A stretch of 64,000 bases of DNA from Candidatus Omnitrophota bacterium. GTDB taxonomy: Bacteria; Omnitrophota; Gorgyraeia; Gygaellales; Profunditerraquicolaceae. The stretch is from NCBI GenBank assembly GCA_041661605.1, contig JBAZUE010000001.1, positions 798,928 to 862,927 on the forward strand, in the 5' to 3' direction. This document shows positions 24,089-37,319 of this stretch, one piece after another (positions within the stretch are counted from its first letter, which is position 1; every line of letters begins with the position of its first letter). A program made the translations under genes and the position numbers. The notes under the pieces were generated by a model. The model was not told the DNA's origin and searched no databases. It was given only the letters and a program-made list of their open reading frames with translations.

Positions 24089-24333
24089 GTCTTAACCTCT
24101 CTTAAAGAAATCCCCAGCTTTTTGATTTTAGCGCGCAAGGTATTTCTGTTTATACCCAGCAACCTGGCAGCCTTTATCTGATTGCCAAAAGTTATAATTA
24201 AGGTATTCGTAATCAATGATTTATCCAATGCATCCAACATTATATGATAGATCTTTCCTTCTTTGCCCTTTAGAAAGATCCGGTCTAACTCCAAAAGCGC
24301 TTTTTCTATTTCTCTTGCCTCTTCATCCATCAT
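24085..24333 (-). CDS. Fis-family small DNA-binding protein
   Basis: 82 aa. IYHIMLDALDKSLITNTLIITFGNQIKAARLLGINRNTLRAKIKKLGI parallels the E. coli Fis C-terminal half (LYELVLAEVEQPLL...[25 protein letters not shown]). Its TGA overlaps the gltB ATG as ATGA. Confidence 0.75.
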   Translation of the reverse strand: MMDEEAREIEKALLELDRIFLKGKEGKIYHIMLDALDKSLITNTLIITFGNQIKAARLLGINRNTLRAKIKKLGISLREVKT

Positions 24334-24360
24334 CTTTTGTATAAATATTAAGCAGCTTTA

Positions 24361-24394
24361 TTTATAAAAGCGCGCCTCGACAAGAGGCGCGCTT
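24361..24394 (-). terminator. intrinsic terminator after glnN
   Basis: 11-bp GC-rich stem aagcgcgcctc / gaggcgcgctt with a 5-nt loop, followed on the minus strand by TTTTAT. Confidence 0.75.
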
Positions 24395-24402
24395 ATTCTT
24401 TA

Positions 24403-26598
24403 TTAACTTATAAACAACATCTCCCTGTACTTGGGCAGGTCCCAGGAGTCATCAGGGACTACACACTCAAGCTGGTCAACATGCCTGCGGATATGTTCCA
24501 TTAAGGGCTTAAGCTGGCTGAAGTAAAGCTTGGCTTTTTCTTCATTACCCAGATTGGCGGACTTATCAAGCAGCTTGACTAATTCAGCGGTATTCCTGCG
24601 CACATAGTAGATCTTAGCGACTATCTCGGCTAAATGCTCTTTCTTATCCTTTAGCGCGGCAAGGTCAACATGCAGGCCGGCATCCTTCTTAAGCTTCATC
24701 AATGAGCCGAGGTTAGATGCTAAGAGCTGCTCATATTTATAGCCTGCAGGGACTATTGAGGCATTCACCATTTCATTTAAGGTATTGGCCTCAATCTCTA
24801 AGGTCAGGTTATACATGTGTATCCAGATGTGGTGGCGGGCGATGAGCTCTTCTTTGGAGAAGACCTTGTATTTCTCAAAAAGGGCGATGTTCTCCTTCTT
24901 CTTTAAGGCATCTAAAGATTCATAGGTAGAGGCGACGTTAGGCAGAGAGCGCTTTTTGGCTTCTTTGATCCAGGCTTCTGAATAATTGTTGCCTTCAAAA
25001 CGGATATTTTTGGTTTCCTTGACGATCTTGGAGATCACCTGCAGAACGCTGGCGTTAAACTCCTTGCCGGTGGAGGAGACACGCTTAATTTCGGCCGCTA
25101 CATAGTCTAAGCTTTCGGCAATGATAGTGTTGACTACCGCAATCGGGGTTGAGATATTCTGTGAAGAGCCGACAGCGCGGAATTCGAACTTTTCTCCGGT
25201 AAAGGCAAAAGGCGAGGTGCGGTTACGGTCAGTTGAGTCTTTGTTGAATTTGGGCAGGCGGCCTATGCCTAAATCAATGATATCGCTTTTGGAGACCTTG
25301 GACTTTACCCCTTTTTCAATCATATCCAGGATATTGGTTAATTGCGCGCCTAAGAAGACGCTGATAATCGCAGGAGGAGCTTCATTGGCTCCCAGACGGT
25401 GCTCATTGCCGGCTAAAGCTACGGAGGCCCGCAGGAGATCAGCGTGCAGATAAACCGCGCGTAACACAGCAGCTAAGACTGCCAAAAACTGCAGGTTGTC
25501 TTCCGGGGTCTGGCCCGGATTAAGCAGGTTGTTGCCTTTGTTATCGGCTAATGACCAATTTAAGTGTTTGCCGCTTCCGTTAATGCCGGCAAAAGGTTTT
25601 TCATGCAGGAGACAGACCAGGTTATGACGCAAGGCTGTCTTCTTCATCAACTCCATGAGCAGCTGGTTGTGGTCTGCGGCGATATTTGATTCTTCAAAGA
25701 TCGGAGCGAATTCATACTGGTGGGGAGCGACCTCATTGTGGCGGGTCATTACCGGTATGCCCAGCTTATAGGCTTCCTGGGCCACTTCAAACATGAAGTT
25801 TACCACCCTCTCCTTGATCGTGCCGAAGTACTGGTCTTCCAGCTGCTGGCCCTTGGGGCTGGCTGCGCCTACCAGGGTGCGGCCGGTCATGATCAGATCT
25901 TGTCTTAGATTATAATAGTTCTTGTCGATTAAAAAATACTCCTGCTCCGGGCCGCAGGTTGAGAATACTTTTTTGACCTCTTTGTGGCCGAAGAGTTTAA
26001 GCAGGGCTACCGCGGAATTGTTTAAGGCTTCATCCGAACGCAGGAGCGGGAGTTTCTTGTCAAGGGCCTCTCCGTGGTAAGAGATAAATATCGTAGGGAT
26101 GCATAATGTCTTGCCGAGAGAACTTTCGATGATGAATGCCGGGCTGGAAGGGTCCCAGGCAGTATATCCCCTGGCTTCAAATGTGGCGCGTATTCCTCCC
26201 GAGGGGAAGCTTGAGGCATCAGGCTCACCCTGGATGAGTTTGTTGCCGGAGAACTTCTCGATTACCTTGCCGGGAGAGGTTATGGAGATGAAGCTATCGT
26301 GTTTTTCGGCGGTTAACCCGGTCATCGGCTGGAACCAGTGGGTGTAGTAGGTGGCACCCTTGGCGATAGCCCAGTCCTTCATTGCCCCGGCGATCTCATT
26401 TGCCTGGGTGAGGGTTATGGTCTTGCCTTCAGAGATCCAGGCCTTGAATGCCTCAAAGGTCTCCTGGGAGATATGCTTCTGCATGGCCTCCATGCTGAAG
26501 GTGTTCTCACCGAAATAGGTGGATACCTTCCTGGGAGAATCCAGCTTATCTAAATCTATGCTCTTGATCTTAAAGAGAACCTTCTGCCTGATGCTCAT
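24403..26598 (-). CDS. glnN: glutamine synthetase type III
   Basis: 731 aa, which is the GSIII length class. The N-terminal YFGENTFS region and central blocks HNEVAPHQYE and NGSGKHLNWS fit the GS catalytic core. Confidence 0.9.
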   Translation of the reverse strand: MSIRQKVLFKIKSIDLDKLDSPRKVSTYFGENTFSMEAMQKHISQETFEAFKAWISEGKTITLTQANEIAGAMKDWAIAKGATYYTHWFQPMTGLTAEKHDSFISITSPGKVIEKFSGNKLIQGEPDASSFPSGGIRATFEARGYTAWDPSSPAFIIESSLGKTLCIPTIFISYHGEALDKKLPLLRSDEALNNSAVALLKLFGHKEVKKVFSTCGPEQEYFLIDKNYYNLRQDLIMTGRTLVGAASPKGQQLEDQYFGTIKERVVNFMFEVAQEAYKLGIPVMTRHNEVAPHQYEFAPIFEESNIAADHNQLLMELMKKTALRHNLVCLLHEKPFAGINGSGKHLNWSLADNKGNNLLNPGQTPEDNLQFLAVLAAVLRAVYLHADLLRASVALAGNEHRLGANEAPPAIISVFLGAQLTNILDMIEKGVKSKVSKSDIIDLGIGRLPKFNKDSTDRNRTSPFAFTGEKFEFRAVGSSQNISTPIAVVNTIIAESLDYVAAEIKRVSSTGKEFNASVLQVISKIVKETKNIRFEGNNYSEAWIKEAKKRSLPNVASTYESLDALKKKENIALFEKYKVFSKEELIARHHIWIHMYNLTLEIEANTLNEMVNASIVPAGYKYEQLLASNLGSLMKLKKDAGLHVDLAALKDKKEHLAEIVAKIYYVRRNTAELVKLLDKSANLGNEEKAKLYFSQLKPLMEHIRRHVDQLECVVPDDSWDLPKYREMLFIS

Positions 26599-26641
26599 GT
26601 TATTCCTCCTGACATATTAAAAGTTAGATTATAACTCAATT

Positions 26642-26695
26642 ATTCAAAAACAAACAGAGGCATTCTCATTAGTTATCGAGGAGAACGCCTCTGTT
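26642..26695 (-). terminator. intrinsic-terminator hairpin in the glnK1-glnN intergenic leader
   Basis: 15-bp stem with one mismatch (26653-26667 / 26681-26695), followed on the minus strand by TTTGTTTTT. It is ~100 nt after the glnK1 stop and ~45 nt before the glnN ATG. Confidence 0.65.
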
Positions 26696-26752
26696 CTCTT
26701 ACTTACATTGCTTAAAATTAAGCCATAAGATGCCTATAAATTAACTCACTAA

Positions 26753-26786
26753 TAATACAAGTAAGAAATAACCGGGTTTGGTAACC
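26753..26786 (-). promoter_or_regulatory. conserved 34-nt bipartite box, copy 1 (upstream of glnN)
   Basis: Plus strand TAATACAAGTAAG-N13-TGGTAACC. Minus strand GGTTACCA-N13-CTTACTTGTATTA. It lies 155 nt from the glnN ATG. Confidence 0.6.
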
Positions 26787-26790
26787 AATT

Positions 26791-27132
26791 TTAACCGATA
26801 GCTACCGGGCCGCGCTCCTCTGTCCTGATACGCACGCATTCATTTAAATCTAATACGAAAATCTTTCCGTCACCTGCCTCGCCGGTTTTAGCGCCTTTTA
26901 CAATAGCCTTAATCGCAGGCTCAACAAAATTCTCATTTACTGCAATTTCAAGACGGATCTTCCGCAGTAAATTCCCTGTTTCTTTGTGCCCGCGGTAAAC
27001 TTCTGTAACTCCCATCTGGCGGCCGTGGCCGAGGACCTCGCTTACGGTAATCAGGTTGATTTCTGATTTATAGAGCTCTTCTTTTACCTCTTCCAATTTG
27101 TAAGGCTGAATTATCGCGATAATTAATTTCAT
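26791..27132 (-). CDS. glnK: P-II nitrogen regulatory protein
   Basis: 113 aa from MKLIIAIIQPYKLEEV. I rejected the track ORF's 28-aa N-terminal extension because it overlaps amt. T-loop is GRQMGVTEVYRGHKE and the C-terminal block is GDGKIFV. Confidence 0.9.
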   Translation of the reverse strand: MKLIIAIIQPYKLEEVKEELYKSEINLITVSEVLGHGRQMGVTEVYRGHKETGNLLRKIRLEIAVNENFVEPAIKAIVKGAKTGEAGDGKIFVLDLNECVRIRTEERGPVAIG

Positions 27133-27145
27133 TTTTCCCTCTCTT

Positions 27146-28372
27146 TCATTCCAAAACTGTATACGCCCGTTCATGATGCTGGGTAAGGTCAAGCCCCATG
27201 CTTTCGTCTTTTTCACTTACACGCATCCTGAAAAACACATCAACAAGTTTATATATGATAAACGTAACTACAAATGTGTAAATTACCACAACTATGACCG
27301 CAAATGACTGAATGAAGAACTGTTTATAGTTGCCGTAAAATAAACCGTTAGCCCCTGAGTTATTGATTGCTTTTGAAGCGAATAACCCAGTCAACAATGT
27401 TCCCAATATTCCACCTACCCCATGCACGCCAAATGCGTCTAAAGAATCATCATATTTAAACTTAGGTTTAGTAATGCTGACAGCTATAAAACAAAGCACG
27501 CTTGCTGATACACCTATAATAATTGCCGACATAACGCTTACAAACCCCGAAGCAGGAGTAACAGTGGCAAGCCCGGCGATAGAACCGGTTACCATGCCAA
27601 AAACCGTAGGCTTACCGTTACGTATCCATTCTAAGAGCGCCCAGCTTAAACCCGCCGCAGCCGCAGCCGCGTTAGTCGCCACAAAAGCGTTAACAGCCAG
27701 GCCGTTTGCCGCCAAAGCGCTGCCGGCATTAAATCCAAACCAGCCAAACCAAAGTAAAGCGGTTCCCAAAACCACAAAAGGCAGATTATGCGGAGATGGG
27801 GTATGCTCCAGGTTCTTTCTCTTCCCCATAAAAATCGTAGTAACTAAAGCGGCGATACCCGCGCTGGTATGCACAACTATGCCTCCTGCGAAATCAAGGA
27901 CGCCTAAATTTTTAAGCCACCCTCCTTGTCCCCAAACCCAGTGGCAAATAGGATCATATACAAAAGTTGCCCAGAGCAGGATAAAAGCCAAAAACGCCGA
28001 GAACCTCATCCTTTCGGCAAAGGCGCCGATAATCAAAGCCGGGGTAATAACGGCAAACATCATCTGGAAAATCATAAAAGCCTGATGAGGTATAGTTGCA
28101 GAATACGCGGCATAAGGTTCTAATCCTACTCCGGCCAAACCCGCCCATTTAAAACCTCCCCAAAATATATTTCCCGGAGCAAAAGAAAGGCTATAACCAA
28201 AAAACATCCAATGCAAAGATAATAAACATAACGCGATAAAACATTGCATCAAAACACTCAAGACATTTTTGCGCCTGACCATGCCGCCGTAGAAAAAAGC
28301 AAGTCCGGGAGTCATTAGCATAACTAAAGCTGTAGAAAATAAAATGAAGACCGTATCTGCCCCATTAATCAT
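27146..28372 (-). CDS. amt: ammonium transporter (Amt family)
   Basis: 408 aa with 11 TM helices. Conserved DFAGGIVVH, the GWFGFNAGS signature and LDAFGVHGVGG (twin-His). Confidence 0.93.
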   Translation of the reverse strand: MINGADTVFILFSTALVMLMTPGLAFFYGGMVRRKNVLSVLMQCFIALCLLSLHWMFFGYSLSFAPGNIFWGGFKWAGLAGVGLEPYAAYSATIPHQAFMIFQMMFAVITPALIIGAFAERMRFSAFLAFILLWATFVYDPICHWVWGQGGWLKNLGVLDFAGGIVVHTSAGIAALVTTIFMGKRKNLEHTPSPHNLPFVVLGTALLWFGWFGFNAGSALAANGLAVNAFVATNAAAAAAGLSWALLEWIRNGKPTVFGMVTGSIAGLATVTPASGFVSVMSAIIIGVSASVLCFIAVSITKPKFKYDDSLDAFGVHGVGGILGTLLTGLFASKAINNSGANGLFYGNYKQFFIQSFAVIVVVIYTFVVTFIIYKLVDVFFRMRVSEKDESMGLDLTQHHERAYTVLE

Positions 28373-28388
28373 AAATCCTCCTGAATTT

Positions 28389-28420
28389 ATTTACACAACT
28401 GGTTAACCAATTGTGTAAAT
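28389..28420. promoter_or_regulatory. 32-bp near-perfect palindrome immediately upstream of the amt (27146-28372) RBS
   Basis: atttacacaaCtggttaaccaAttgtgtaaat, with 15 of 16 symmetric pairs. The right half, ttaaccaattgtgtaaa, recurs at 30205-30221 upstream of the second amt. Confidence 0.55.
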
Positions 28421-28424
28421 ACCG

Positions 28425-28474
28425 GATAAAAGAAAAGGCGCTCATAACAGCCTTTTAAGCTGCTATGAGCGCCT
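28425..28474 (-). terminator. intrinsic-terminator hairpin in the glnK2-amt1 intergenic leader
   Basis: Perfect 11-bp stem aggcgctcata / tatgagcgcct (28436-28446 / 28464-28474), followed on the minus strand by TTTTCTTTT. Confidence 0.65.
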
Positions 28475-28520
28475 ACAGTGCGCTATATAACTATAAACAC
28501 TACCTTGTGCCTAAGCTTAC

Positions 28521-28554
28521 TAATACAAGTAAGAGAGAAGCTAACCTGGTAACC
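28521..28554 (-). promoter_or_regulatory. conserved 34-nt bipartite box, copy 2 (upstream of amt-glnK)
   Basis: Plus strand TAATACAAGTAAG-N13-TGGTAACC, 149 nt from the amt ATG. Confidence 0.6.
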
Positions 28555-28564
28555 ATTAATTTAA

Positions 28565-28906
28565 TTACCCGATAGCTACCTGGCCGCGCTCTTCGGTCCT
28601 GATACGCACGCATTCTTCCAATTCAAGGACAAAAATCTTGCCATCTCCCGTCTCACCGGTTTTAGCGCCCTTGACAATCGCTTTGATAGCCGATTCAAGA
28701 TAATTGTCATTTACGGCAATCTCCAGGCGCATTTTACGCAAAAGATTACCTGTCTCCTTAGCCCCGCGGTAAACTTCTGTAACCCCCATCTGGCGGCCGT
28801 GGCCGAGGACCTCGCTTACGGTAATCAGGTTGATTTCTGATTTATAGAGCTCTTCTTTTACCTCTTCCAATTTGTAAGGCTGAATTATCGCAATGACTAA
28901 TTTCAT
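28565..28906 (-). CDS. glnK: P-II nitrogen regulatory protein
   Basis: 113 aa, a near-duplicate of the 26791-27132 product. Confidence 0.92.
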   Translation of the reverse strand: MKLVIAIIQPYKLEEVKEELYKSEINLITVSEVLGHGRQMGVTEVYRGAKETGNLLRKMRLEIAVNDNYLESAIKAIVKGAKTGETGDGKIFVLELEECVRIRTEERGQVAIG

Positions 28907-28938
28907 AAAACCCTCCCCTTAGTTTTGGATACCGGTTC

Positions 28939-30168
28939 TCATTCTAAAACAGTATACGCCCGTTCATGGTGCTGGGTAAGGTCAAGCCCCATAGCTTCAG
29001 ATTTCTCATCTACCCTTACGCCAATAAATAGATCAACTAACTTATAAATAATAAGCGTCACCACTGCCGTATAAACAATTGTTACCCCCACTGCTGCCAG
29101 TTGAACTAAGAATTGTTTAGGATTTCCGAAAAACAGGCCGTCAGCTCCCGCAGAGTTAACCAGCTTAGAAGCAAACAGTCCAGTAGCCAAAGCTCCCCAG
29201 ATCCCACCCACGCAATGCACTCCAAAAGCATCCAGGGAATCGTCATAACCAAATAACGGCTTAATCACAGTCACGGCAATAAAACACAATACGCTTACCA
29301 ATATGCCAATGATGATCGCCGGAATCACGCTGACAAAACCTGCCGCAGGAGTAATGGCGACTAAACCCGCCACAGCCCCGGAACATACGCCAAAGATCGT
29401 TGGCTTGCCGTTACGCAACCATTCAATCAAGGCCCAGCTCAAACCCGCCGCAGCCGCAGCTGTATTAGTTACCACAAAAGCATTCACAGCCAGGCCGTTT
29501 GCGGCCAAAGCGCTGCCGGCATTAAATCCAAACCAGCCAAACCATAATAACCCCGTGCCCAAAACCACAAAAGGCATATTATGCGGAGTAGGGACATTTT
29601 TATCAAGATTAGAGCGTTTACCCAAAACTATAGCCGTAACCAAAGCTGCTATCCCGGCGTTAATATGCACAACCGTGCCTCCGGCAAAATCAAGCGCGCC
29701 TATATTCCTTAACCAGCCGCCCATACCCCAAACCCAGTGGCATAACGGATCATATACAAATGTCGCCCAAAGTAAAGTAAAAACCAAAAACGCGGAGAAC
29801 TTCATTCTTTCGGCAAAAGCTCCAATGATCAAGGCAGGCGTGATAATTGCAAACATCATCTGGAAAACCATAAACGCCTGATGCGGGATTGTTCCGGCAT
29901 AGTCGGCGTATGGCTCTAAGCCTACGCCATTTAACCCCAACCATTGTAAACCGCCCCAGAATCCTTTAGATGGAGCAAATGACAGGCTATAGCCGATTAA
30001 CACCCACTGGATGCTTAAAACACATACAATAATGAAACATTGCATCAAAACACTTAAGACATTTTTCCGCCTGACCATGCCTCCGTAAAAGAAAGCCAAG
30101 GCCGGAGTCATCAGCAATACGAGTGCCGATGACATTAAAACCCACGCTGTATCTCCCGCATTAATCAT
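28939..30168 (-). CDS. amt: ammonium transporter (Amt family)
   Basis: 409 aa, a close paralogue of 27146-28372 with the same signature blocks. Confidence 0.93.
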   Translation of the reverse strand: MINAGDTAWVLMSSALVLLMTPALAFFYGGMVRRKNVLSVLMQCFIIVCVLSIQWVLIGYSLSFAPSKGFWGGLQWLGLNGVGLEPYADYAGTIPHQAFMVFQMMFAIITPALIIGAFAERMKFSAFLVFTLLWATFVYDPLCHWVWGMGGWLRNIGALDFAGGTVVHINAGIAALVTAIVLGKRSNLDKNVPTPHNMPFVVLGTGLLWFGWFGFNAGSALAANGLAVNAFVVTNTAAAAAGLSWALIEWLRNGKPTIFGVCSGAVAGLVAITPAAGFVSVIPAIIIGILVSVLCFIAVTVIKPLFGYDDSLDAFGVHCVGGIWGALATGLFASKLVNSAGADGLFFGNPKQFLVQLAAVGVTIVYTAVVTLIIYKLVDLFIGVRVDEKSEAMGLDLTQHHERAYTVLE

Positions 30169-30259
30169 TACCTTCCTCCTTTTTTTGTTAAAAGATACTC
30201 TTGATTAACCAATTGTGTAAAATCAAACTAAAAAAAGCCTGTCTTTCTCCTTCAAGCCC

Positions 30260-30439
30260 TTAATCTATGTTCAATTTTTCTTTAACCAACCGCGCGTAAA
30301 CCTTGTTTATCCGTCTTGTCTGCAGCCATCTCTCTATGGTAGTAATTTGAATATCTAGTTTCTTAGACAAATCATACAGGGTATAACCATTTTCCTCTTT
30401 TAACCGCAGTATTTTCCGGATTAATTCATTATCTATCAT
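30260..30439 (-). CDS. small helix-turn-helix protein (59 aa), not in the supplied ORF track
   Basis: My minus-strand translation is MIDNELIRKILRLKEENGYTLYDLSKKLDIQITTIERWLQTRRINKVYARLVKEKLNID*. GYTLYDLSKKLDIQITTIERWL is HTH-like. The ATG lies 6 nt after the glnK3 stop. No obvious SD. Confidence 0.5.
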   Translation of the reverse strand: MIDNELIRKILRLKEENGYTLYDLSKKLDIQITTIERWLQTRRINKVYARLVKEKLNID

Positions 30440-30445
30440 ATAATC

Positions 30446-30784
30446 TTATACAGCTATATCACCCTGTTCTCCTGTACGTATGCGTACAACGCCTTCTATA
30501 TCAGAGATAAAAATCTTACCGTCCCCTATTTCTCCTGTATAAGCAGCCTCTCTTATTGCCTTAACTGTTTTTTCAAGATCCTGGTCCTTCACTACAACTT
30601 CAATTTTTGTCTTCGGAAGCAATGCTAGCTTATATTCTTTTCCACGCCACTGCTGTTTCAAACCCTTCTGCTTACCATGCCCTTCAATTTCGGTAATCAT
30701 CATTCCAGGATAACCTACTTTTTCAAATGCGCTACATACCGCATCAAGCTTTGTCGGCCGGATTATCGCTTCTATCTTTTTCAT
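30446..30784 (-). CDS. glnK: P-II nitrogen regulatory protein (retains Tyr51)
   Basis: 112 aa. MKKIEAIIRPTKLDAV ... GHGKQKGLKQQWRGKEYKL ... GDGKIFI. Confidence 0.92.
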   Translation of the reverse strand: MKKIEAIIRPTKLDAVCSAFEKVGYPGMMITEIEGHGKQKGLKQQWRGKEYKLALLPKTKIEVVVKDQDLEKTVKAIREAAYTGEIGDGKIFISDIEGVVRIRTGEQGDIAV

Positions 30785-30807
30785 TTTAAATTCCTTTCTT
30801 TTTAATC

Positions 30808-30837
30808 GGCGCCTCCGGGTTGCCTGCCGGAGACGCC
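30808..30837 (-). other. GC-rich intercistronic hairpin between amt3 and glnK3
   Basis: ggcgcctccgg-gttgcctg-ccggagacgcc, 11 bp with one mismatch. No U-tract follows on the minus strand. Confidence 0.5.
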
Positions 30838-30847
30838 AGTTAATTAG

Positions 30848-32419
30848 TTATTTAGAAATAGGGGTCTCAGAATTCCTGTCAAGTTTTACCCCCGCATAGC
30901 CCACAACTCCCATCTCAGGAACATCCAGCCCGTATATTTCTGCTTCAGGATCTGGCCTACTGCCGCAAACTACATCAATTAATTTGAAAATTATAAACGA
31001 GATTATCCCTACATAAATAATATTGGAGAACACACCTATGCATTGAGCAAAGAATTGCGAGGCATCGCCGTAGAACAAACCTTTTACAGTGCCGGCAACA
31101 CCATTCCACCCATCACCATAGGAGCCATCCGCAAATAACCCTAAGGCTAAACATCCGAAAGCGCCATTAACTCCATGTACGGATATAGCGCCTACCGGAT
31201 CATCCAGTTTAAGTTTTCCTTCGACAAAATATACAGATTCAACTACTAATACTCCGGAGATCAAACCGATAATGCAGGCGCTGATAGAATTAACAAATGC
31301 ACAAGGCGCGGTAATCGCTACAAGGCCCGCTAGCATGCCATTACACATCATACTTGGATCGGGTTTCTTGGTACGCACCAACCACATCCATAAGGTAGCT
31401 GCCATTGCTCCCGTAGCAGAAGCCAGCATTGTATTAACCGCAACTATTCCGATACGCAAATCAGTACCGGCTAAGGTTGAACCGGCATTAAAACCAAACC
31501 ACCCGAAAGCCAGGATAAATGTACCAACAACTGCCATGGGAATATTATGCCCAGGTATAGGATTAGCGCTGCCGTCCTTATTAAATTTGCCTATACGTGG
31601 CCCTACAATCCAGGCACCGATCAAAGCGATCACGCCTCCCGTGAGATGGACTACAGAGGAACCGGCAAAATCCACATGACCATGCCCCAACTGAAAATTC
31701 TGCCCTAACATTGCCAACCATCCGCCGCCCCATACCCAGTTACCGAATATCGGATAAATTATCGTCCCTACAAAAACTCCGTAAATGCAGAAAGAAAGGA
31801 ATTTCCATCTTTCAGCTAACGCACCGGTAGGAATTGTCGCTGTCGTATCCATAAATACCATTTGAAATAGAAAAAGCACATACACAGCAACATCGTAGGA
31901 AGAACCTTGAAGAAAAAACCCATTTAACCCGAATAAACCAAAAGGCTTTCCGAATAAATTAATTGTAAATTCATGATTCAAACCCCCATAGCCCCCCAAA
32001 GTACCCAGGGCGCCTATGCCACCAAACATTAAAGCAAAACCACAGACATAGAAACCAAGCATACCTAAAGGATAAATCAAGAAATTCATACCCATAGTAT
32101 GGGCGACATTCTTGGCGCGGGTCAGGCCTGTTTCTACCATAGCAAATCCCGGTTGCATAAACATTACCAAAAATCCCGCAACAAGTGTCCAAACAAAGTT
32201 AATTGCCACCTTATTATGCCCAACAGTATTAGCTAATTCATCCAAAGTAGGCTTACCTGCTACAGCCGCAGACACATCACTGGCTGTTCCGGTAGCTGCT
32301 CCGCTGGCATCAGGGCCACCGGCAAAAAGGGATACTACCGATAAGGCAAAAAATACAAACATCATGCATAAAATTATCAAACTATTCTTTTTTAAAAACT
32401 GTCTCATCGTTATTTTCAT
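30848..32419 (-). CDS. amt: ammonium transporter (Amt family) with signal peptide and a long N-terminal extension
   Basis: 523 aa. Has DFAGSSVVH, GWFGFNAGS and ISVHGVNGAFG. It is divergent from the other two copies. Confidence 0.9.
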   Translation of the reverse strand: MKITMRQFLKKNSLIILCMMFVFFALSVVSLFAGGPDASGAATGTASDVSAAVAGKPTLDELANTVGHNKVAINFVWTLVAGFLVMFMQPGFAMVETGLTRAKNVAHTMGMNFLIYPLGMLGFYVCGFALMFGGIGALGTLGGYGGLNHEFTINLFGKPFGLFGLNGFFLQGSSYDVAVYVLFLFQMVFMDTTATIPTGALAERWKFLSFCIYGVFVGTIIYPIFGNWVWGGGWLAMLGQNFQLGHGHVDFAGSSVVHLTGGVIALIGAWIVGPRIGKFNKDGSANPIPGHNIPMAVVGTFILAFGWFGFNAGSTLAGTDLRIGIVAVNTMLASATGAMAATLWMWLVRTKKPDPSMMCNGMLAGLVAITAPCAFVNSISACIIGLISGVLVVESVYFVEGKLKLDDPVGAISVHGVNGAFGCLALGLFADGSYGDGWNGVAGTVKGLFYGDASQFFAQCIGVFSNIIYVGIISFIIFKLIDVVCGSRPDPEAEIYGLDVPEMGVVGYAGVKLDRNSETPISK

Positions 32420-32442
32420 TAAGAGCTCCTTTGATTACCCTG

Positions 32443-33246
32443 TCAAAAGTTAATATCCAGTTGGAAGGTAATCGTATCAGTAAGATTGCGATTATTATAA
32501 ATATCATAAGCAAGTATTGCCGAAATATCCTTGGTAAAACTCCAGGCAAAACCTGCATTCAAAGCGCCATAGGAAGACTGCGTACCCTGATAATCAACGC
32601 ACAGCCACAATTTATCGCTAATCTCTGTCATTGTGCGCTCCCAGGCTACCATTGGACCAGCATTATCCCGCAAACCTTGCTTATCTCTAAGCAACCTTCC
32701 GTTACCCACAAAATAACCGCCCGAAACTCTTCCCAGATTAACCTTACCTACATTAACTGTTTTGGCAATCCTGCCATACCAAACATTATTATTGGTTCTA
32801 TTGGCCCTTGTGCCCATATCGTATGAGCCAACTGCAATAGCGGGCATATCTTTAAAATAAGCGCCCTCAGGTACTCCTAACTTAAAATGAAAATACCAGG
32901 GAGTCGAATCATAAAATGATCCTAAGCCTTTTTTATAATCAAATCCTGTTTCAGCCATAATCTTGCCTAATGGATACCATAATTTACCAAGCAGATTCTC
33001 CTCCTGTTTATCAGATAAAAGACTAAAAGTCGGGCCCCAAACCTGCAAAACATAGTTATGCTGATCATAATTATCAGCATTGGTACCTTTGCTGGTTGTA
33101 GGAGCATAAATATCGTATCCTATATGGATCTTCTTATAGGGCTGGATATCGGTAGACGGAGCCCAAATAAGCGTTGAAGGGGTGGCATATACATTAGATA
33201 AAACAAAAGTAAAGAAAACCGCTAAAATCAATCTAATTCGCTTCAC
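32443..33246 (-). CDS. putative outer-membrane beta-barrel (porin-like) protein
   Basis: I chose the GTG start at 33246 (AAGGAGAG upstream), which gives the signal peptide (M)KRIRLILAVFFTFVLSNVYA. The sequence has alternating beta-strand character and ends in the C-terminal F of LDINF. Its stop is 23 nt upstream of the amt3 start. Confidence 0.45.
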   Translation of the reverse strand: MKRIRLILAVFFTFVLSNVYATPSTLIWAPSTDIQPYKKIHIGYDIYAPTTSKGTNADNYDQHNYVLQVWGPTFSLLSDKQEENLLGKLWYPLGKIMAETGFDYKKGLGSFYDSTPWYFHFKLGVPEGAYFKDMPAIAVGSYDMGTRANRTNNNVWYGRIAKTVNVGKVNLGRVSGGYFVGNGRLLRDKQGLRDNAGPMVAWERTMTEISDKLWLCVDYQGTQSSYGALNAGFAWSFTKDISAILAYDIYNNRNLTDTITFQLDINF

Positions 33247-33260
33247 TGTCTCTCTCCTTC

Positions 33261-33318
33261 CCAATAAAAAAGCGTCTTTTAGAATCCATCTTGGATTAAG
33301 AAAGACGCCTGCGTCTTT
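33261..33318 (-). promoter_or_regulatory. candidate terminator/antiterminator element in the OMP-amt3 leader
   Basis: On the minus strand AAAGACGC (33318-33311), GCGTCTTT (33308-33301) and AAAGACGC (33279-33272), followed by TTTTTT. The middle segment can pair with either flank. Confidence 0.45.
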
Positions 33319-33320
33319 TG

Positions 33321-33354
33321 AAAACAAAAAAAGCGTTCTATTCTTATAGAACGC
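33321..33354 (-). terminator. intrinsic-terminator hairpin downstream of the sigma gene, in the OMP-amt3 leader
   Basis: 9-bp stem gcgttctat / atagaacgc (33333-33341 / 33346-33354), followed on the minus strand by TTTTTTTGTTTT. Confidence 0.65.
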
Positions 33355-33390
33355 CTATGTTTAATTCTTACACTTCAATGTGCCCTACAT

Positions 33391-33424
33391 TAATACAAGT
33401 AAAGAATGCTTGAAACTGGTAACT
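33391..33424 (-). promoter_or_regulatory. conserved 34-nt bipartite box, copy 3 (upstream of OMP-amt-glnK)
   Basis: Plus strand TAATACAAGTAAA-N13-TGGTAACT. It overlaps the sigma-gene stop codon and lies 145 nt from the GTG at 33246. Confidence 0.55.
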
Positions 33425-33947
33425 AAATCTTATCCAGGTGCTTTTGAGACTTGGCCCTGATCTTGCGCATCATCTTTACTACGCTGACATGGGATACACT
33501 CATACGCCTGCCTATATCCCTGGTAGTCAACCCCTGGCTGAAATAAGTAAGCAGCCTTTTTTCTCTTGGATTAAAACCATTATCCCTGATGCTTTGAGCT
33601 AAAAGTTTATTATGCAAATCCTGCCGGCAATCCGGGCAAGCCCAATATTCACCAAGGACATCCTCCATAGTTGCCTCATCATCAGTATTCAAGGCAGCAT
33701 CCATACTGATAATATTTGAACGCTCATTAATTTTGCGTATATAGTTCTTCAGGTGGAAATAACATCCTTGCAAAATATAGCTGTCTGTTTTATCGCCAAG
33801 CTTACCCTCCAAGAAACTGCTCCAAAGATGGATTGTCGCCTCTTGATATAGATCATCATGATTAAACGACCGGTAATGCCCGTTTAGCCGGTAAGCAATC
33901 CTTTTTATGGTTGGCGATAACTTTTGGTACAACTCTTCAAAACACAT
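33423..33947 (-). CDS. sigma-70 family RNA polymerase sigma factor (small, ECF-like, regions 2 and 4 only)
   Basis: 174 aa. The region-2-like segment is DDLYQEATIHLW...YILQGCYFHLKNYIRK. The region-4 HTH is REKRLLTYFSQGLTTRDIGRRMSVSHVSVVKMMRKIRAK. Confidence 0.7.
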   Translation of the reverse strand: MCFEELYQKLSPTIKRIAYRLNGHYRSFNHDDLYQEATIHLWSSFLEGKLGDKTDSYILQGCYFHLKNYIRKINERSNIISMDAALNTDDEATMEDVLGEYWACPDCRQDLHNKLLAQSIRDNGFNPREKRLLTYFSQGLTTRDIGRRMSVSHVSVVKMMRKIRAKSQKHLDKI

Positions 33948-34009
33948 GTTCTAACCCTCATGTTACCCCACGCTAATAGGTATTGCGTGGGTATCCGCCA
34001 AGTGGGCGG

Positions 34010-34054
34010 AAAAAGAAAAACGTCCCTGCCCTGTTTTTCAAGGGCTAAGGACGT
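34010..34054 (-). terminator. terminator-like hairpin 2 in the sigma-gene leader
   Basis: acgtcc..gccct / agggc..ggacgt, followed on the minus strand by TTTTTCTTTTT. Confidence 0.5.
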
Positions 34055-34070
34055 CTTAGTCCGGTAAAAC

Positions 34071-34105
34071 AAAAAAAATCTTCTAACGAAAATTCCGCCA
34101 GAAGA
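34071..34105 (-). terminator. terminator-like hairpin 1 in the sigma-gene leader
   Basis: On the minus strand tcttct-N15-agaaga followed by eight T. The stem is weak and the U-tract strong. Confidence 0.4.
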
Positions 34106-34142
34106 CTTCAATGTCTTATGTTACAGCGCTGTATACATTTAA

Positions 34143-34170
34143 AATATACCATATCCCCTGAAATTGTCAA
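34143..34170 (-). promoter_or_regulatory. sigma70-like promoter of the sigma-factor gene
   Basis: On the minus strand TTGACA-N16-TATATT. The perfect 12-bp palindrome TACAGCGCTGTA (34122-34133) lies just downstream of the predicted start. Confidence 0.55.
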
Positions 34171-34208
34171 TATTATTTTTCGCTTTTGCTCCGGCAAAAT
34201 AATGATTA

Positions 34209-34236
34209 TTGCAATTCGCGATATTTAGCTTATAAT
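34209..34236 (+). promoter_or_regulatory. sigma70-like promoter of the ppiD-like gene
   Basis: TTGCAA-N16-TATAAT, with AGGAGG 7 nt before the ATG at 34259. Confidence 0.6.
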
Positions 34237-34258
34237 TAATGCTTAATAGGAGGAATAA

Positions 34259-35647
34259 ATGTTAAAAATTTTACGCAACAAAAAAACCGCAAAGAAAGTT
34301 TGGATAGGCCTGGCCATAATCATCATCCCTGCCTTTACCCTCTGGGGTTTTGGCAGTTCAAGCCGCAGCAAGGAAGAGAGTGCTTCTGCCGGCAAGATAT
34401 TCGGTAAAAACGTATCCAATCTGGAATTTAAAAAAGCCATAGCTGCCACAAGAACATCCGCTATCATGCAGTTCGGGGATGACTTTCCAAAAATTGAGAA
34501 ATACCTGAATTTAGAGGGACAGGCCTGGGAAAGGTTGATACTCTTGCAGGAGGCAAAAAAGCGCAAGATAAACATAAGCGACCAGGAGGTTATTAATACA
34601 ATCCAGAAAATGCCTTATTTCCAAAAGAAATCCTCCTTTGACAATAAGACCTACGTAGAAATCCTGCGGTATGTCTTTCGCCTGCAGCCGCGTACCTTTG
34701 AGGAACAACTGCGTCAAAACCTTATCCTGGCTAAACTTTACAGCCAGGTTACCGATGGAGTAAAGATAGAAGACAGCCAAATACGCCAGGAATGGCTGAA
34801 AAGCAATGAAGAACTGAGCATTTACTACATTGCCGCCTTATTTGCTGAATTTGCCAAGAAAATTAAGCCGGAGGATAAAGAAATCTCTGCCTATTATGAC
34901 AAAAACAAAGATATCTTTAAAGAACCTCCCAGCCTGAACCTGGAGTATATTCTTACCGAATCAGATACAGAATCAAAAAAGATTACGGATTTAATAAACA
35001 AAAAATACGACTTAGAGAAAATATCCAAAGAACTTAATCTGGCTAAGAAGGAAACCGGGTTATTTAAACAATACGCTCCTCCCCCTGTCTTGAAAATACC
35101 GCAGGAAACTTTAAACTTAGTCTTAAGCCTTAAAGAAGGGCTGCCAGCCCCTGTGGTCAAGGTAGATAAAACATACTATGTTTATGCCCTTAAAGAAAAT
35201 AAACCGGCAGAAATCCCTGGATTAGCGGAGGTAAAAGACAAGATCAAGGAAATTATAATAGATGAAGAATCAAAAAAGATCGCCCAGGCCAAAATAAAAG
35301 AATGCGCTGATAAGCTAAAGAATGAACCGTTTAACCGGGTAGCCAGTGCCAGCGCATATGGCTTTAAGACCGGTCAGACTAAATTCTTCAAGTCCGGCGA
35401 CCAGTTGGATATCCTTGGCCAGGGTAAGATCTTTTGGGAAAATGCCAAGAAATTAAAGGAAACCCAGCTAAGTGACATATTTTCCAATTCCAATGGATAC
35501 TATATTATCAAACTCAAAGCTAATAAACCTGTGGATGAGGAAAAATTCGCCAAGGAAAAGAAGGAATTTGGCGATAATATGTTATCTGGAGAGAAAAATA
35601 AGGTTTTTGGCAAATTTACTGATGAGATGAAGAAAAAAGCGCAATAA
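34259..35647 (+). CDS. periplasmic chaperone / peptidyl-prolyl isomerase, PpiD/SurA-like
   Basis: 462 aa. The N-terminal anchor MLKILRNKKTAKKVWIGLAIIIIPAFTLWG is typical of PpiD, followed by a SurA-N-like region. Confidence 0.6.
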   Translation: MLKILRNKKTAKKVWIGLAIIIIPAFTLWGFGSSSRSKEESASAGKIFGKNVSNLEFKKAIAATRTSAIMQFGDDFPKIEKYLNLEGQAWERLILLQEAKKRKINISDQEVINTIQKMPYFQKKSSFDNKTYVEILRYVFRLQPRTFEEQLRQNLILAKLYSQVTDGVKIEDSQIRQEWLKSNEELSIYYIAALFAEFAKKIKPEDKEISAYYDKNKDIFKEPPSLNLEYILTESDTESKKITDLINKKYDLEKISKELNLAKKETGLFKQYAPPPVLKIPQETLNLVLSLKEGLPAPVVKVDKTYYVYALKENKPAEIPGLAEVKDKIKEIIIDEESKKIAQAKIKECADKLKNEPFNRVASASAYGFKTGQTKFFKSGDQLDILGQGKIFWENAKKLKETQLSDIFSNSNGYYIIKLKANKPVDEEKFAKEKKEFGDNMLSGEKNKVFGKFTDEMKKKAQ

Positions 35648-35690
35648 GAAAAAAGGACGCATCTATTATTCTTAGATGCGTCCTTTTTTA
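35648..35690. terminator. bidirectional intrinsic terminator between the convergent ppiD-like and ferredoxin genes
   Basis: aaaaaaggacgcatcta-ttattct-tagatgcgtcctttttt: a 12-bp stem flanked by an A-run and a T-run. Confidence 0.8.
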
Positions 35691-35697
35691 ATGCTTA

Positions 35698-35883
35698 TTA
35701 AGCGCTTATCTTTATTGAATTTACCGGACAAGAATCCGCTATTTCCTGCAGATTACAAGTTGCACATACTTGCGCCTTTACATGGGCAACACCATCACCC
35801 TGGACCTCAAAAACTTCCGGGCAAGACTGTTCGCACAACCCGCAACCTACGCATGTAGAAGCATCAACCGTAACTTTTGACAT
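35698..35883 (-). CDS. small 4Fe-4S (or 3Fe-4S) ferredoxin
   Basis: 61 aa. CVGCGLCEQSCP plus a distal C..C......CP. Confidence 0.8.
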   Translation of the reverse strand: MSKVTVDASTCVGCGLCEQSCPEVFEVQGDGVAHVKAQVCATCNLQEIADSCPVNSIKISA

Positions 35884-35895
35884 ATTTTTCTCCTA

Positions 35896-36375
35896 TTATC
35901 TTTCCAAAAGATTTTCAAACATCTCTTCGTGACTTACTTCTTCCGACAATATATGTGAAACTAATTGATATGTAACATTATCCTTGCCAAACGTCTTCTT
36001 GGCAATTTTATTATATACCTCAATTGCTCCTGCCTCTGCCTCAGCAACAATACGGATAATCCGGTTAATATCAGCGGTGTTCCTCGGAGGCATAAGATAA
36101 GCGGCATTAGCCCCTTTTTCCAAATCCATAGGGTTAGCTACCGGAACGTCTCCCAATTTAGTAATCAAATCCGCTAATTCACCCGCATGTTCTAACTCAT
36201 CTTTGGCTATTTTCTCGAGCATCTCTTTCATATCTTCATAGGCCCTGCCGGAAACTGTCTGTGCCATATACCAATAAAGATAAAACGCCAGCCATTCATC
36301 ACAGTAAGCCTTATTCAAATCTTTCACTAAATCCTTCAAGCTTAAATCTACAATCGCCCTTGCTTGCTTTCCCAT
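35896..36375 (-). CDS. ferritin-like / bacterioferritin-Dps-like di-iron protein
   Basis: 159 aa four-helix-bundle pattern with E..H pairs (DELEHAGEL, SEEVSHEEM). Confidence 0.6.
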   Translation of the reverse strand: MGKQARAIVDLSLKDLVKDLNKAYCDEWLAFYLYWYMAQTVSGRAYEDMKEMLEKIAKDELEHAGELADLITKLGDVPVANPMDLEKGANAAYLMPPRNTADINRIIRIVAEAEAGAIEVYNKIAKKTFGKDNVTYQLVSHILSEEVSHEEMFENLLER

Positions 36376-36434
36376 AGTGACCCTCCTTGTCTACCTAGAC
36401 AACACTCGCGCAAATCCAATTAGCGCGGGGTGCC

Positions 36435-37319
36435 TCACCCTTGCGCCTCTAACTTCAAACCATACTTCTTTATATTATTATCCGCAATATCCTGGACCTT
36501 CCTGATTTCACCGGGATTATTAAGGAGATGTTTAAACCTTCCCTGCATCTTTAAATATTCCTCTACAGGCTTAGGAACAATTTGTTTGCGTCCTGACAAT
36601 ACCCCGAACTCATATTCAAACAAAGGGTAAAGCCCGGTCTCTACTGCCATTTTTGCTACGGGCAGCATCTGATTTGACTCATGACGCCAGCCTAAAGGAC
36701 AAGGCACATGCACCTGGATATATTTAGGCCCCTTGATAGAGATAGCTTTCTTTACTTTACGTGTCAAATCCTGAGGAAATCCTGTTGAAGCTGTAGCCAC
36801 ATAAGGAATTCCATGCGCCGCGCAAATCTCCGGCACAGGTTTTTTTGGCCGCAAATTACCTGAAGAAAGTCCGCCGGCAGGGCTGGTAGTAGTATTTGTA
36901 TCAAACGGAGTAAGACCGCTTCTCTGCACGCCGGTATTCATATAAGCTTCATTATCATAACAAACATACAAAATATCATGGCCGCGCTCAAGCATACCGC
37001 TTATAGCCTGCAAACCAATGTCCCCGGTTGAACCATCCCCGCCCTGCGCGATAACATTAATATTATCTTTCTTGCCTAAATATATCAATGCCGCCTCAAT
37101 ACCTGAAGCAACGGCAGCGGAATTCTCAAATAAAGAGTGGATCCAGGGAACACCCCAGGCGGTTTCCGGGTATTTAGTGGTAAAAACTTCCAAGCAACCG
37201 GTACTGTTGGCGATAATCGTATTGGCTCCGGATGCCTCAATGACTAAGCGGGCGGCAACTGCCTGGCCGCAGCCAGCGCAAGCGGTATGTCCGGGTTTAA
37301 ATAAAGGGCTATTCTCCAT
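36435..37319 (-). CDS. porB: pyruvate:ferredoxin oxidoreductase beta subunit (TPP-binding)
   Basis: 294 aa. N-terminal CAGCG and the TPP motif GGDGSTGDIG...NEAYMNTG. Confidence 0.9.
   Translation of the reverse strand: MENSPLFKPGHTACAGCGQAVAARLVIEASGANTIIANSTGCLEVFTTKYPETAWGVPWIHSLFENSAAVASGIEAALIYLGKKDNINVIAQGGDGSTGDIGLQAISGMLERGHDILYVCYDNEAYMNTGVQRSGLTPFDTNTTTSPAGGLSSGNLRPKKPVPEICAAHGIPYVATASTGFPQDLTRKVKKAISIKGPKYIQVHVPCPLGWRHESNQMLPVAKMAVETGLYPLFEYEFGVLSGRKQIVPKPVEEYLKMQGRFKHLLNNPGEIRKVQDIADNNIKKYGLKLEAQG

Follow-up and report, generated by a model that had tools for sequence, protein, structure and literature searches.

A putative nitrogen sigma factor of Omnitrophota, its candidate promoter and its ANTAR-type attenuators

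We analysed a 64,000-nucleotide stretch (the window) of contig JBAZUE010000001.1 from a Candidatus Omnitrophota bacterium (GenBank assembly GCA_041661605.1, positions 798,928 to 862,927), focusing on a gene for a 174-residue sigma-like protein (the sigma gene), the leader in front of it and a short repeated element (the box) that overlaps its stop codon and recurs before nitrogen genes. The locus probably forms the top of a two-tier nitrogen regulon conserved across Omnitrophota, in which synthesis of the sigma factor would be gated by an ANTAR antiterminator, the sigma factor would read the boxes, and read-through into the operons behind the boxes would again be ANTAR-gated. What was observed directly, in the window and in homologous loci, is the set of elements with their conservation, covariation and genomic linkage. 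Positions are those of the window, and the features are collected in Table 1.

The sigma-like protein and its gene neighbourhood

The 174-residue protein matched the Pfam family Sigma70_r2 with 25.6 bits (cutoff 24) and a region-4/GerE-type helix-turn-helix (HTH) family with 26.6 bits (cutoff 23.5). The NCBIfam model TIGR02937 for sigma-70 factors of the extracytoplasmic function (ECF) type matched it end to end (model positions 2 to 165 of 165) with 46.2 bits against a cutoff of 42.9, and no NCBIfam subfamily or equivalog model came near its own cutoff. With a shallow alignment, AlphaFold2 gave a predicted local distance difference test score (pLDDT) of 57, and this model was too uncertain to be used; with an alignment of 116 sequences the pLDDT rose to 80, with helical domains at residues 1 to 76 and 108 to 170 joined by a low-confidence linker. 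In a Foldseek search of the Protein Data Bank (PDB) with this model, all top matches were sigma factors aligned over the full length, namely SigB of Staphylococcus aureus, SigL and SigH of Mycobacterium tuberculosis, sigmaE of Escherichia coli, AlgU, FliA and WhiG. A profile search of the PDB returned weak sigma factor matches only, the best being region 2 of FliA (E = 2e-4). Pfam, the model and Foldseek agreed that sigma2 and sigma4 are present and that sigma1.1 and sigma3 are absent. From the family and profile matches, the predicted structure and its structural neighbours, we assign the protein to the sigma-70 family with an ECF-like two-domain architecture. The original prediction, made from the letters of the window, had called it a small sigma factor with regions 2 and 4 only, and it was borne out by Pfam, TIGR02937, AlphaFold2 and Foldseek alike.

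Hundreds of close homologues were found, and every named source was Candidatus Omnitrophota. With E ≤ 1e-30, a profile search against 1.84 billion cluster representatives gave no more than 122 clusters, and with E ≤ 1e-10 no more than 269, which indicates that the family is small and discrete and not generic ECF. Among 116 members, Pfam detected Sigma70_r2 in 97, r4 in 57, r4_2 in 33 and, most frequently, GerE in 109. The most conserved part of the protein comprised the region-2 motifs DDLYQEA..LW and the YILQGCYFHLKNYIRK block. The closer family shared the invariant blocks DKTDSYILQGCYFHLKNYIR and SHVxVVK, and relatives at 28 to 33% identity retained ESY[IV][IV]x[GA]CxFH..N..RK and SHVM[IV]. 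By position, we take the ESY...RK block to correspond to regions 2.3–2.4 and SHVM[IV] to the recognition helix of region 4.2, which are the parts of sigma factors that read the −10 and −35 elements, respectively. C62 (codon at 33762-33764, minus strand) lies in the invariant SYILQGCYFH block and was conserved in all members, even at 30% identity. A zinc or redox site at CxDC (C103/C107) was also considered and was dropped, as CxDC is not conserved in distant members.

To describe the neighbourhood, we mapped the proteins of the window onto 80 genome loci with sigma relatives of 46 to 95% identity. In the window, the sigma gene is preceded by a divergent gene for a SurA-like peptidyl-prolyl isomerase and followed by a porin-like gene, three amtB genes, three P-II genes, a type III glutamine synthetase gene and gltB. 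In essentially all 80 loci the sigma gene stood directly upstream, on the same strand, of porin-like, amtB, glnB/K, glnA and gltB genes, so that its predicted place at the head of a nitrogen block held across this set. The upstream neighbours varied, and the SurA/porin arrangement of the window was seen only in the closest relatives. It had also been stated that no anti-sigma gene adjoins the sigma gene; this agrees with its two neighbours here, and no recurrent anti-sigma candidate was found in the 80 loci. In one locus (L009:1039-2042), the sigma gene was followed by a box with an ANTAR-type leader and then by nifH and two P-II-like genes. Since nifH follows the box there, the regulon would reach nitrogenase in at least one Omnitrophota lineage.

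The leader of the sigma gene and its antiterminator

The upstream regions of the sigma gene were strikingly conserved among the 80 loci. The near-consensus sigma70 promoter that had been predicted was found to agree with the consensus at 11 of 12 positions, and 47 of 48 homologous leaders had TTGAC[AT]-N16-18-TAnnnT in the corresponding position. The 192-nt leader folded at −73.4 kcal/mol, with z = −7.3 relative to shuffled sequences. In the consensus of the relatives, the promoter was followed by (U)UAC[AGCGUU]GUA(G), a short linker, AAGAC[AyWGAA]GUCUU and GGAC[UAAGGC]GUCC. We refer to the first two hairpins as P1 and P2; they precede terminator 1, and the third hairpin precedes terminator 2.

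An ANTAR target is defined by two hairpins of at least 3 bp with hexaloops carrying A at position 1 and G at position 4 (A1/G4), a linker of 5 to 12 nt and overlap of the second hairpin with a terminator, and such targets lie mostly upstream of nitrogen genes (PMC3369931). Among 40 leaders, A1 was present in the P1 loop of 36 and G4 in that of 39, the corresponding counts for P2 were 31 and 35, and positions 2 and 3 of both loops were variable. The P1–P2 linker of the sigma leader was 4 to 5 nt long, compared with the published 5 to 12 nt (PMC3369931). By coordinates, P2 shares an arm with the intrinsic terminator and is mutually exclusive with it. P1 and P2 had 93% paired cells in these leaders but were almost invariant in sequence; the P1 stem was kept through such variants as GUUAC[AGAGAU]GUAAC. 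The helix of terminator 1 had 95.5% of its cells paired and 24 cells changed on both sides, a level that none of 500 shuffles reached, and terminator 2 also showed compensatory changes (Table 1). Judged by comparison, the sigma leader is a pair of tandem ANTAR-type attenuators, a known class of RNA element.

Most of what the original prediction said of the leader was upheld. The two hairpins followed by U-tracts are present and conserved with compensatory changes in 37 to 40 relatives, and the leader is more than a housekeeping untranslated region, being a conserved regulatory structure in homologous loci whose two terminators covary. The 12-bp palindrome just behind the promoter is present as described; because the leader hairpins agree with the published definition of ANTAR targets, it is better read as the RNA hairpin P1 than as a DNA operator. 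Compared by eye, the palindrome fitted neither the sigma-54 pattern nor an NtcA site (GTA-N8-TAC) nor a TnrA/GlnR site (TGTNA-N7-TNACA). An Rfam E-value scan of positions 19000 to 36000 gave no match to the leader and returned only chance miRNA-like matches on the terminator hairpin at 35634-35710, and no larger conserved aptamer was found in the sigma leaders.

The two further stem-loops that had been assigned to the leader exist, but they do not belong to it. The segment 34009..33965 that contains them was missing in a relative (L002) whose sequence is 95% identical. It is a copy of a dispersed repeat, acquired by recent insertion. The repeat unit, [GCCnC..GnGGC] + [CCnCGC-AAUWCCWAUUA-GCGnGG], is about 45 to 55 nt long and occurred in variable copy number and in both orientations at many Omnitrophota loci, with CCGCC-cactt-GGCGG + CCCACGC-AAUACCUAUUA-GCGUGGG as an example. 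Copies usually lay between a terminator and a ribosome-binding site (RBS), and one locus (L015) had several in a row. The repeat may be of the repetitive extragenic palindrome (REP) type, of the miniature inverted-repeat transposable element (MITE) type or a structured RNA.

Clustering of open reading frames (ORFs) over the loci revealed a 240-residue protein encoded upstream of the sigma gene, on the same strand and within 7 kb, in 36 loci. It contains a GAF domain (Pfam GAF_2, 2.7e-23) and an ANTAR domain (1.5e-15), and its gene is the last of an Lrp/AsnC–aminotransferase–GAF-ANTAR operon. In 22 loci, this gene adjoined the sigma gene and ended 140 to 310 nt before its start codon. No ANTAR gene was found in the 64-kb window, either among all ORFs of at least 110 residues or by tblastn with the GAF-ANTAR protein of the relatives, and a 2-kb gap upstream of the sigma gene in another locus (L005) held RadC and other genes and no ANTAR gene. 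Because the A1/G4 hairpins are intact, GAF-ANTAR is presumably encoded elsewhere in the genome. In more distant lineages, the sigma gene was translationally coupled to nadE, and the housekeeping promoter and ANTAR leader sat before nadE. As the leader moves with the new first gene, ANTAR control of sigma synthesis appears to be kept when the gene order changes.

The box, the proposed circuit and its alternatives

The repeated element occurred three times in the window (33425..33388, 28555..28518 and 26787..26750), always on the minus strand, and its first copy starts at the TAG stop codon of the sigma gene. We built a weight matrix from these three copies and refined it on the 80 sigma loci. 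The resulting consensus, GTTACCA-N15-TACTTGTA (equivalent to GTTACC-N16-TACTTGTA), consists of two invariant blocks at fixed spacing, with a T-rich stretch before the second block. Rare variants altered only the first base of either block (GATTACC, CACTTGTA or GACTTGTA). In the sigma-anchored loci (918 kb), all 129 exact matches to the core were on the gene strand. Seventy-one copies started at or just after the stop codon of the sigma gene, and the others stood before glnA, amtB, glnB, porin-like genes or a small Fis-type gene that comes ahead of gltB. Every box in these loci was followed first by a nitrogen-related gene, which in L009 was nifH. Furthermore, the box ended 4 to 12 nt before the first leader hairpin, the place that the TTGACA/TATAxT promoter occupies in the leader of the sigma gene itself. 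The box does not match the sigma-70 consensus and has no dyad symmetry; the sigma-54 pattern GG-N10-GC is absent from it, its conserved blocks being 16 nt apart. When the box was compared by eye with sigma-54, NtcA (GTA-N8-TAC) and TnrA/GlnR (TGTNA-N7-TNACA) sites, none of them fitted.

To remove the bias of sampling loci by their sigma gene, we also scanned metagenome contigs with a 15-base pattern of the box. Of 120 stretches, 65 had a sigma gene or nitrogen genes in the right orientation, and several more had a canonical leader before a porin or permease gene. About half of the matches looked like chance, having no leader and no nitrogen genes nearby. Beside sigma relatives of 28 to 33% identity the box was unchanged, and next to two relatives of about 30% identity it lay inside the last codons of the sigma ORF (L085:495-524 and L110:14012-14041). 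In two loci (L011:8522-8660 and L015:8522-8692), the box after the sigma gene was broken and was followed by a remnant of the GAF-ANTAR C-terminus and then by nadE; this arrangement is a rearrangement scar.

The leader grammar of the sigma gene was repeated after every box (Table 1). In 37 leaders behind sigma genes, P1 and P2 were 95% paired, with A-U to G-C compensation in seven sequences, and for the terminator pairing was 96% and the number of cells with changes on both sides was 27. The P1–P2 linker behind the boxes was about 8 nt. Hexaloop hairpins with A1 and G4 occurred 1.9 times per 120-nt leader, compared with 0.54 times per random window.

Because the box has the position of a promoter, a fixed spacing, a single orientation and nitrogen genes only behind it, a dedicated pair of sigma factor and box promoter is well supported by comparison, though not proven: an invariant promoter together with invariant reading heads is to be expected of such a pair but does not prove it. 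The original prediction had placed a 34-nt box at the sigma stop codon and at two more nitrogen operons, noted its lack of resemblance to AAC/CGT-type ECF promoters and put forward a dedicated sigma/promoter pair. The three copies and their departure from that promoter type were found as stated, and the pair gained strong comparative support from the invariant spacing, the strand count, the restriction to nitrogen genes and the persistence of the box beside sigma relatives of about 30% identity.

In the first tier of the proposed circuit, the housekeeping promoter would transcribe the sigma gene through its leader of about 190 nt, in which two tandem intrinsic terminators would compete with ANTAR-target hexaloop hairpins, P1 and P2 for terminator 1 and the single hairpin for terminator 2. 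When its GAF domain reports nitrogen limitation, GAF-ANTAR would bind the nascent hairpins, the terminators would be blocked and the sigma factor would be made. In the second tier, the sigma factor would take RNA polymerase to the boxes of the porin/amtB, amtB-glnK, glnA and gltB operons, and of nifH in one relative. Because the transcripts from the boxes carry the same ANTAR attenuators, full expression would need both the sigma factor and an active antiterminator, a design that amounts to a coherent feed-forward AND gate. With box 1 lying across the stop codon of the sigma gene, the terminators behind it would also serve to terminate the sigma transcript whenever ANTAR is inactive. Which molecules bind each other, what the GAF domain senses and which way the response runs are inferred in this scheme. 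We lean slightly towards the wider view that Omnitrophota replaced control by sigma-54/NtrC (or by NtcA or GlnR/TnrA) with a private, GAF-ANTAR-gated nitrogen sigma factor, in an RNA–protein–sigma feed-forward loop over ammonium uptake, glutamine synthetase/glutamate synthase (GOGAT) and, in L009, nitrogenase.

Several points weigh against this circuit. That the sigma factor reads the boxes is a proposal from comparison, and the invariance of the box leaves no room to show covariation between sigma factor and promoter. The box lacks the ECF pattern of AAC at −35 and CGT at −10. Most ECF sigma genes are preceded by their own target promoter, whereas no box stood directly upstream of the sigma gene in any locus examined, so the gene would not be autoregulated. 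Transcription running on from the sigma gene could be enough to express the genes behind it. On the RNA side, the antiterminator of the present genome is assumed, position 1 in the loop of the third hairpin, ahead of terminator 2, is U or C instead of A (with G at position 4), and the stems of P2 are invariant, so that its pairing is supported by conservation and not by covariation.

The absence of a box before the sigma gene would also fit a different arrangement, in which the box is read by another alternative sigma factor, or by the housekeeping sigma factor with an activator such as the Fis-type or the 59-residue HTH protein described below, while the adjacent sigma factor controls a different, unseen regulon. 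The link between sigma factor and box is one of comparison and not physical, and two small HTH proteins are indeed conserved in the block. However, their genes occurred in only 31 and 22 of the 80 loci, the box lacks dyad symmetry and has the layout of a −35/−10 pair with fixed spacing, and sigma gene and box co-occur, even overlapping, across the family down to about 30% identity. We therefore regard another reader of the box as unlikely. It is still less probable that the protein is no sigma factor at all and acts as a LuxR/GerE-type activator, which would bring the housekeeping holoenzyme to the box by binding there. GerE scored above its cutoff and was the most frequent family match, but a GerE match is to be expected of a sigma factor, the HTH folds of GerE and sigma region 4 being related. 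The end-to-end match to TIGR02937, the detection of Sigma70_r2 in most members, the alignment of the whole model to ECF, SigB and FliA sigma factors and the concentration of conservation in the region-2 motifs all argue for a sigma factor.

Two further alternatives concern the leader. The lack of an ANTAR gene in the window and of an Rfam match would be in line with a metabolite riboswitch (for glutamine, for example) or a constitutive pair of terminators, working without a protein antiterminator. We consider this very improbable, since what is conserved is not an aptamer but two hairpins of 3 to 5 bp with A1/G4 hexaloops overlapping terminators, and since GAF-ANTAR adjoins the sigma gene in 22 relatives. 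Hardly any weight falls on the idea that the palindrome is the DNA operator of a dimeric repressor at +3 to +15. The palindrome overlaps the transcription start, and it is perfect in the present genome; it is imperfect in most relatives (TACAGCGTTGTA), which keep a stem of 3 to 5 bp and an A1/G4 loop, vary at loop positions 2 and 3 and preserve the stem where the sequence changes, and P1 of the leaders behind the boxes has the same pattern. The ANTAR-gated sigma factor with its own box promoters thus remains the reading that we prefer.

Table 1. Positions of the sigma gene, the boxes, the leader elements and the dispersed repeats in the window.
Feature	Positions	Strand	Remarks
Sigma gene (ORF)	33947..33423	minus	174 aa; putative divergent sigma-70-family factor, sigma2 and sigma4 only, Omnitrophota-specific family
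Sigma-gene promoter, housekeeping-type, TTGACA-N16-TGgTATATT	34143..34170	minus	11/12 consensus positions, TG extension
P1 hairpin, UAC[AGCGCU]GUA, 12-bp palindrome TACAGCGCTGTA	34122..34133	minus	first half of putative ANTAR-type dual-hexaloop antiterminator
P2 hairpin, AAGAC[AUUGAA]GUCUU	34102..34117	minus	3' arm is 5' arm of terminator 1; invariant stem
Terminator 1, intrinsic	34071..34109	minus	16 pairs and U-tract
Single hexaloop hairpin, GGAC[UAAGAC]GUCC	34049..34062	minus	overlaps terminator 2; 3' arm starts terminator 2
Terminator 2, intrinsic	34010..34055	minus	RNAalifold, 37 leaders: 11 pairs, 5 compensatory
Inserted dispersed palindromic repeat, hairpins ccgcc/ggcgg and cccacgc/gcgtggg	33965..34009	minus	absent from L002
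Second repeat copy	36385..36440	minus	just before RBS of ferritin-like gene
Box 1, GTTACC-N16-TACTTGTA	33394..33423	minus	overlaps sigma stop; proposed promoter for sigma factor
Box 2	28524..28553	minus	before amtB-glnK
Box 3	26756..26785	minus	before glnA (type III glutamine synthetase)
ANTAR-type leader of porin-like/amtB operon	33266..33383	minus	hairpins and two terminators
Porin leader P1, GCAC[AUUGAA]GUGU	33383..33370	minus	
Porin leader P2, AAC[AUAGGC]GUU	33361..33350	minus	overlaps terminator 33356..33326
Porin leader hairpin, AAGAC[GCAGGC]GUCUU	33317..33302	minus	overlaps second terminator 33308..33266
ANTAR-type amtB leader	28428..28510	minus	P1 GCAC[AAGGUA]GUGU, P2 GCGC[ACUGUAG]GCGC, then terminator
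glnA attenuator, GAGAAC[AGAGGC]GUUCUC	26646..26698	minus	overlaps terminator

Relation to known systems and minor features of the nitrogen block

The nasF operon of Klebsiella oxytoca combines an NtrC/sigma-54 promoter with the ANTAR antiterminator NasR, which uses two hexaloop hairpins overlapping the leader terminator (PMC12591593, PMC3369931). The present locus resembles it in that nitrogen operons would have both a specialised sigma-dependent promoter and ANTAR control, as comparison suggests. However, sigma-54 and its enhancer-binding protein would give way here to a 174-residue sigma-70-family protein whose own gene lies behind ANTAR attenuators, and the sensor domain is GAF instead of NIT. 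In Geobacter sulfurreducens, GnfL/GnfM and GnfK/GnfR form a cascade in which an ANTAR regulator relieves the leader terminators of nitrogen genes, and the GnfR site CAGGCAANGGCGCC has an AnnGGC hexaloop, as P2 does here (PMC2995071). There, a sigma-54 activator turns on the ANTAR regulator, whereas the order appears reversed here, with the ANTAR regulator turning on the sigma factor. GnfR is a phosphorylated response regulator, in contrast to the one-component GAF-ANTAR protein. The EutV/EutW system of Enterococcus faecalis also has several leaders per regulon, each with a dual hairpin (PMC3369931). Its RNA grammar is common to both systems, but its cargo is ethanolamine utilisation, its sensor is of the two-component type and it has no sigma tier.

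With ECF (group 4) sigma factors the protein shares the sigma2 and sigma4 domains, a length of about 170 to 190 residues, a bipartite promoter with about 16-nt spacing and an activity apparently set by its expression level. ECF sigma factors without an anti-sigma factor that are set by their own synthesis, such as HrpL, are known. Unlike typical ECF sigma factors, the present one has neither an anti-sigma gene nor autoregulation, its putative promoter is TTACC/ACTTGTA instead of AAC/CGT, and its similarity to solved ECF sigma factors is very weak. We know of no described mechanism by which an ECF sigma gene is controlled through transcription attenuation, and a literature search found no description of one; nor did it find anything relevant on an ECF sigma factor tied to amtB or glnA, or on Omnitrophota with ANTAR proteins or sigma factors. 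ANTAR attenuators on nitrogen genes and ECF-like sigma factors with private promoters are thus already known. New, with no account of them turned up in the literature searches, are the sigma family, its promoter motif, a sigma gene under ANTAR attenuation and the phylum-wide combination of sigma factor and ANTAR control on every target.

Omnitrophota are widespread, almost entirely uncultured and often ultra-small bacteria, and to our knowledge nothing is known of their gene regulation. For these bacteria the locus offers a complete, testable circuit that joins a sensor protein and an RNA target to a sigma factor and a promoter motif. If the proposal is right, it would add a fourth kind of nitrogen control to sigma-54/NtrC, NtcA and GlnR/TnrA, and it would be, as far as we know, the first case of an ECF-like sigma factor whose level is set by ANTAR-mediated attenuation instead of an anti-sigma factor. 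The invariant and highly specific motif could serve for annotating nitrogen regulons in metagenomes, and sigma factor and box could serve as an orthogonal sigma/promoter pair in synthetic biology.

Two small HTH proteins are encoded in the nitrogen block. A 59-residue ORF (30260-30439, minus strand) has a weak Cro/HTH-like signature, with Pfam below its cutoff, and is present in 31 of the 80 loci, nearly always just before the glnK-linked amtB; in the window it is followed by a terminator (30259..30230). Its product could be an extra regulator of the block. An 82-residue stand-alone Fis-type HTH_8 protein (8.6e-11) is encoded between glnA and gltB (24088-24333, minus strand) and resembles an NtrC-type activator reduced to its DNA-binding end, with no ATPase domain. 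In 22 loci the gene encodes a 125-residue version and is preceded by a box about 520 nt upstream of gltB.

The amtB-glnK unit is tandemly duplicated (26791-30168, minus strand), with 69 to 84% DNA identity over the repeat copies and a separate upstream region for each. The glnK-linked amtB genes have a conserved inverted repeat, TTTACACAATTG-N6-8-CAGTTGTGTAAA (28390-28419 and 30200-30221, minus strand), between attenuator and RBS. It is found in many relatives too and could act as an operator, form an RNA hairpin or provide a second promoter. Just past the SurA-like gene, which ends at 35647, a long perfect hairpin with flanking A and T runs (35634-35710) overlaps two small convergent ORFs (35676..35858, plus strand; 35698..35883, minus strand); it is a bidirectional terminator. 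A housekeeping-type −10 element lies behind the glnA attenuator in the window (about 26610-26645, minus strand) and in L006, L013, L018, L025 and other loci; it reads GTTATAAT in the window and, as an extended −10 element, TGTGGTAAAAT in about half of the relatives. By analogy with glnAp1/glnAp2 of E. coli, this suggests a second, constitutive glnA promoter.

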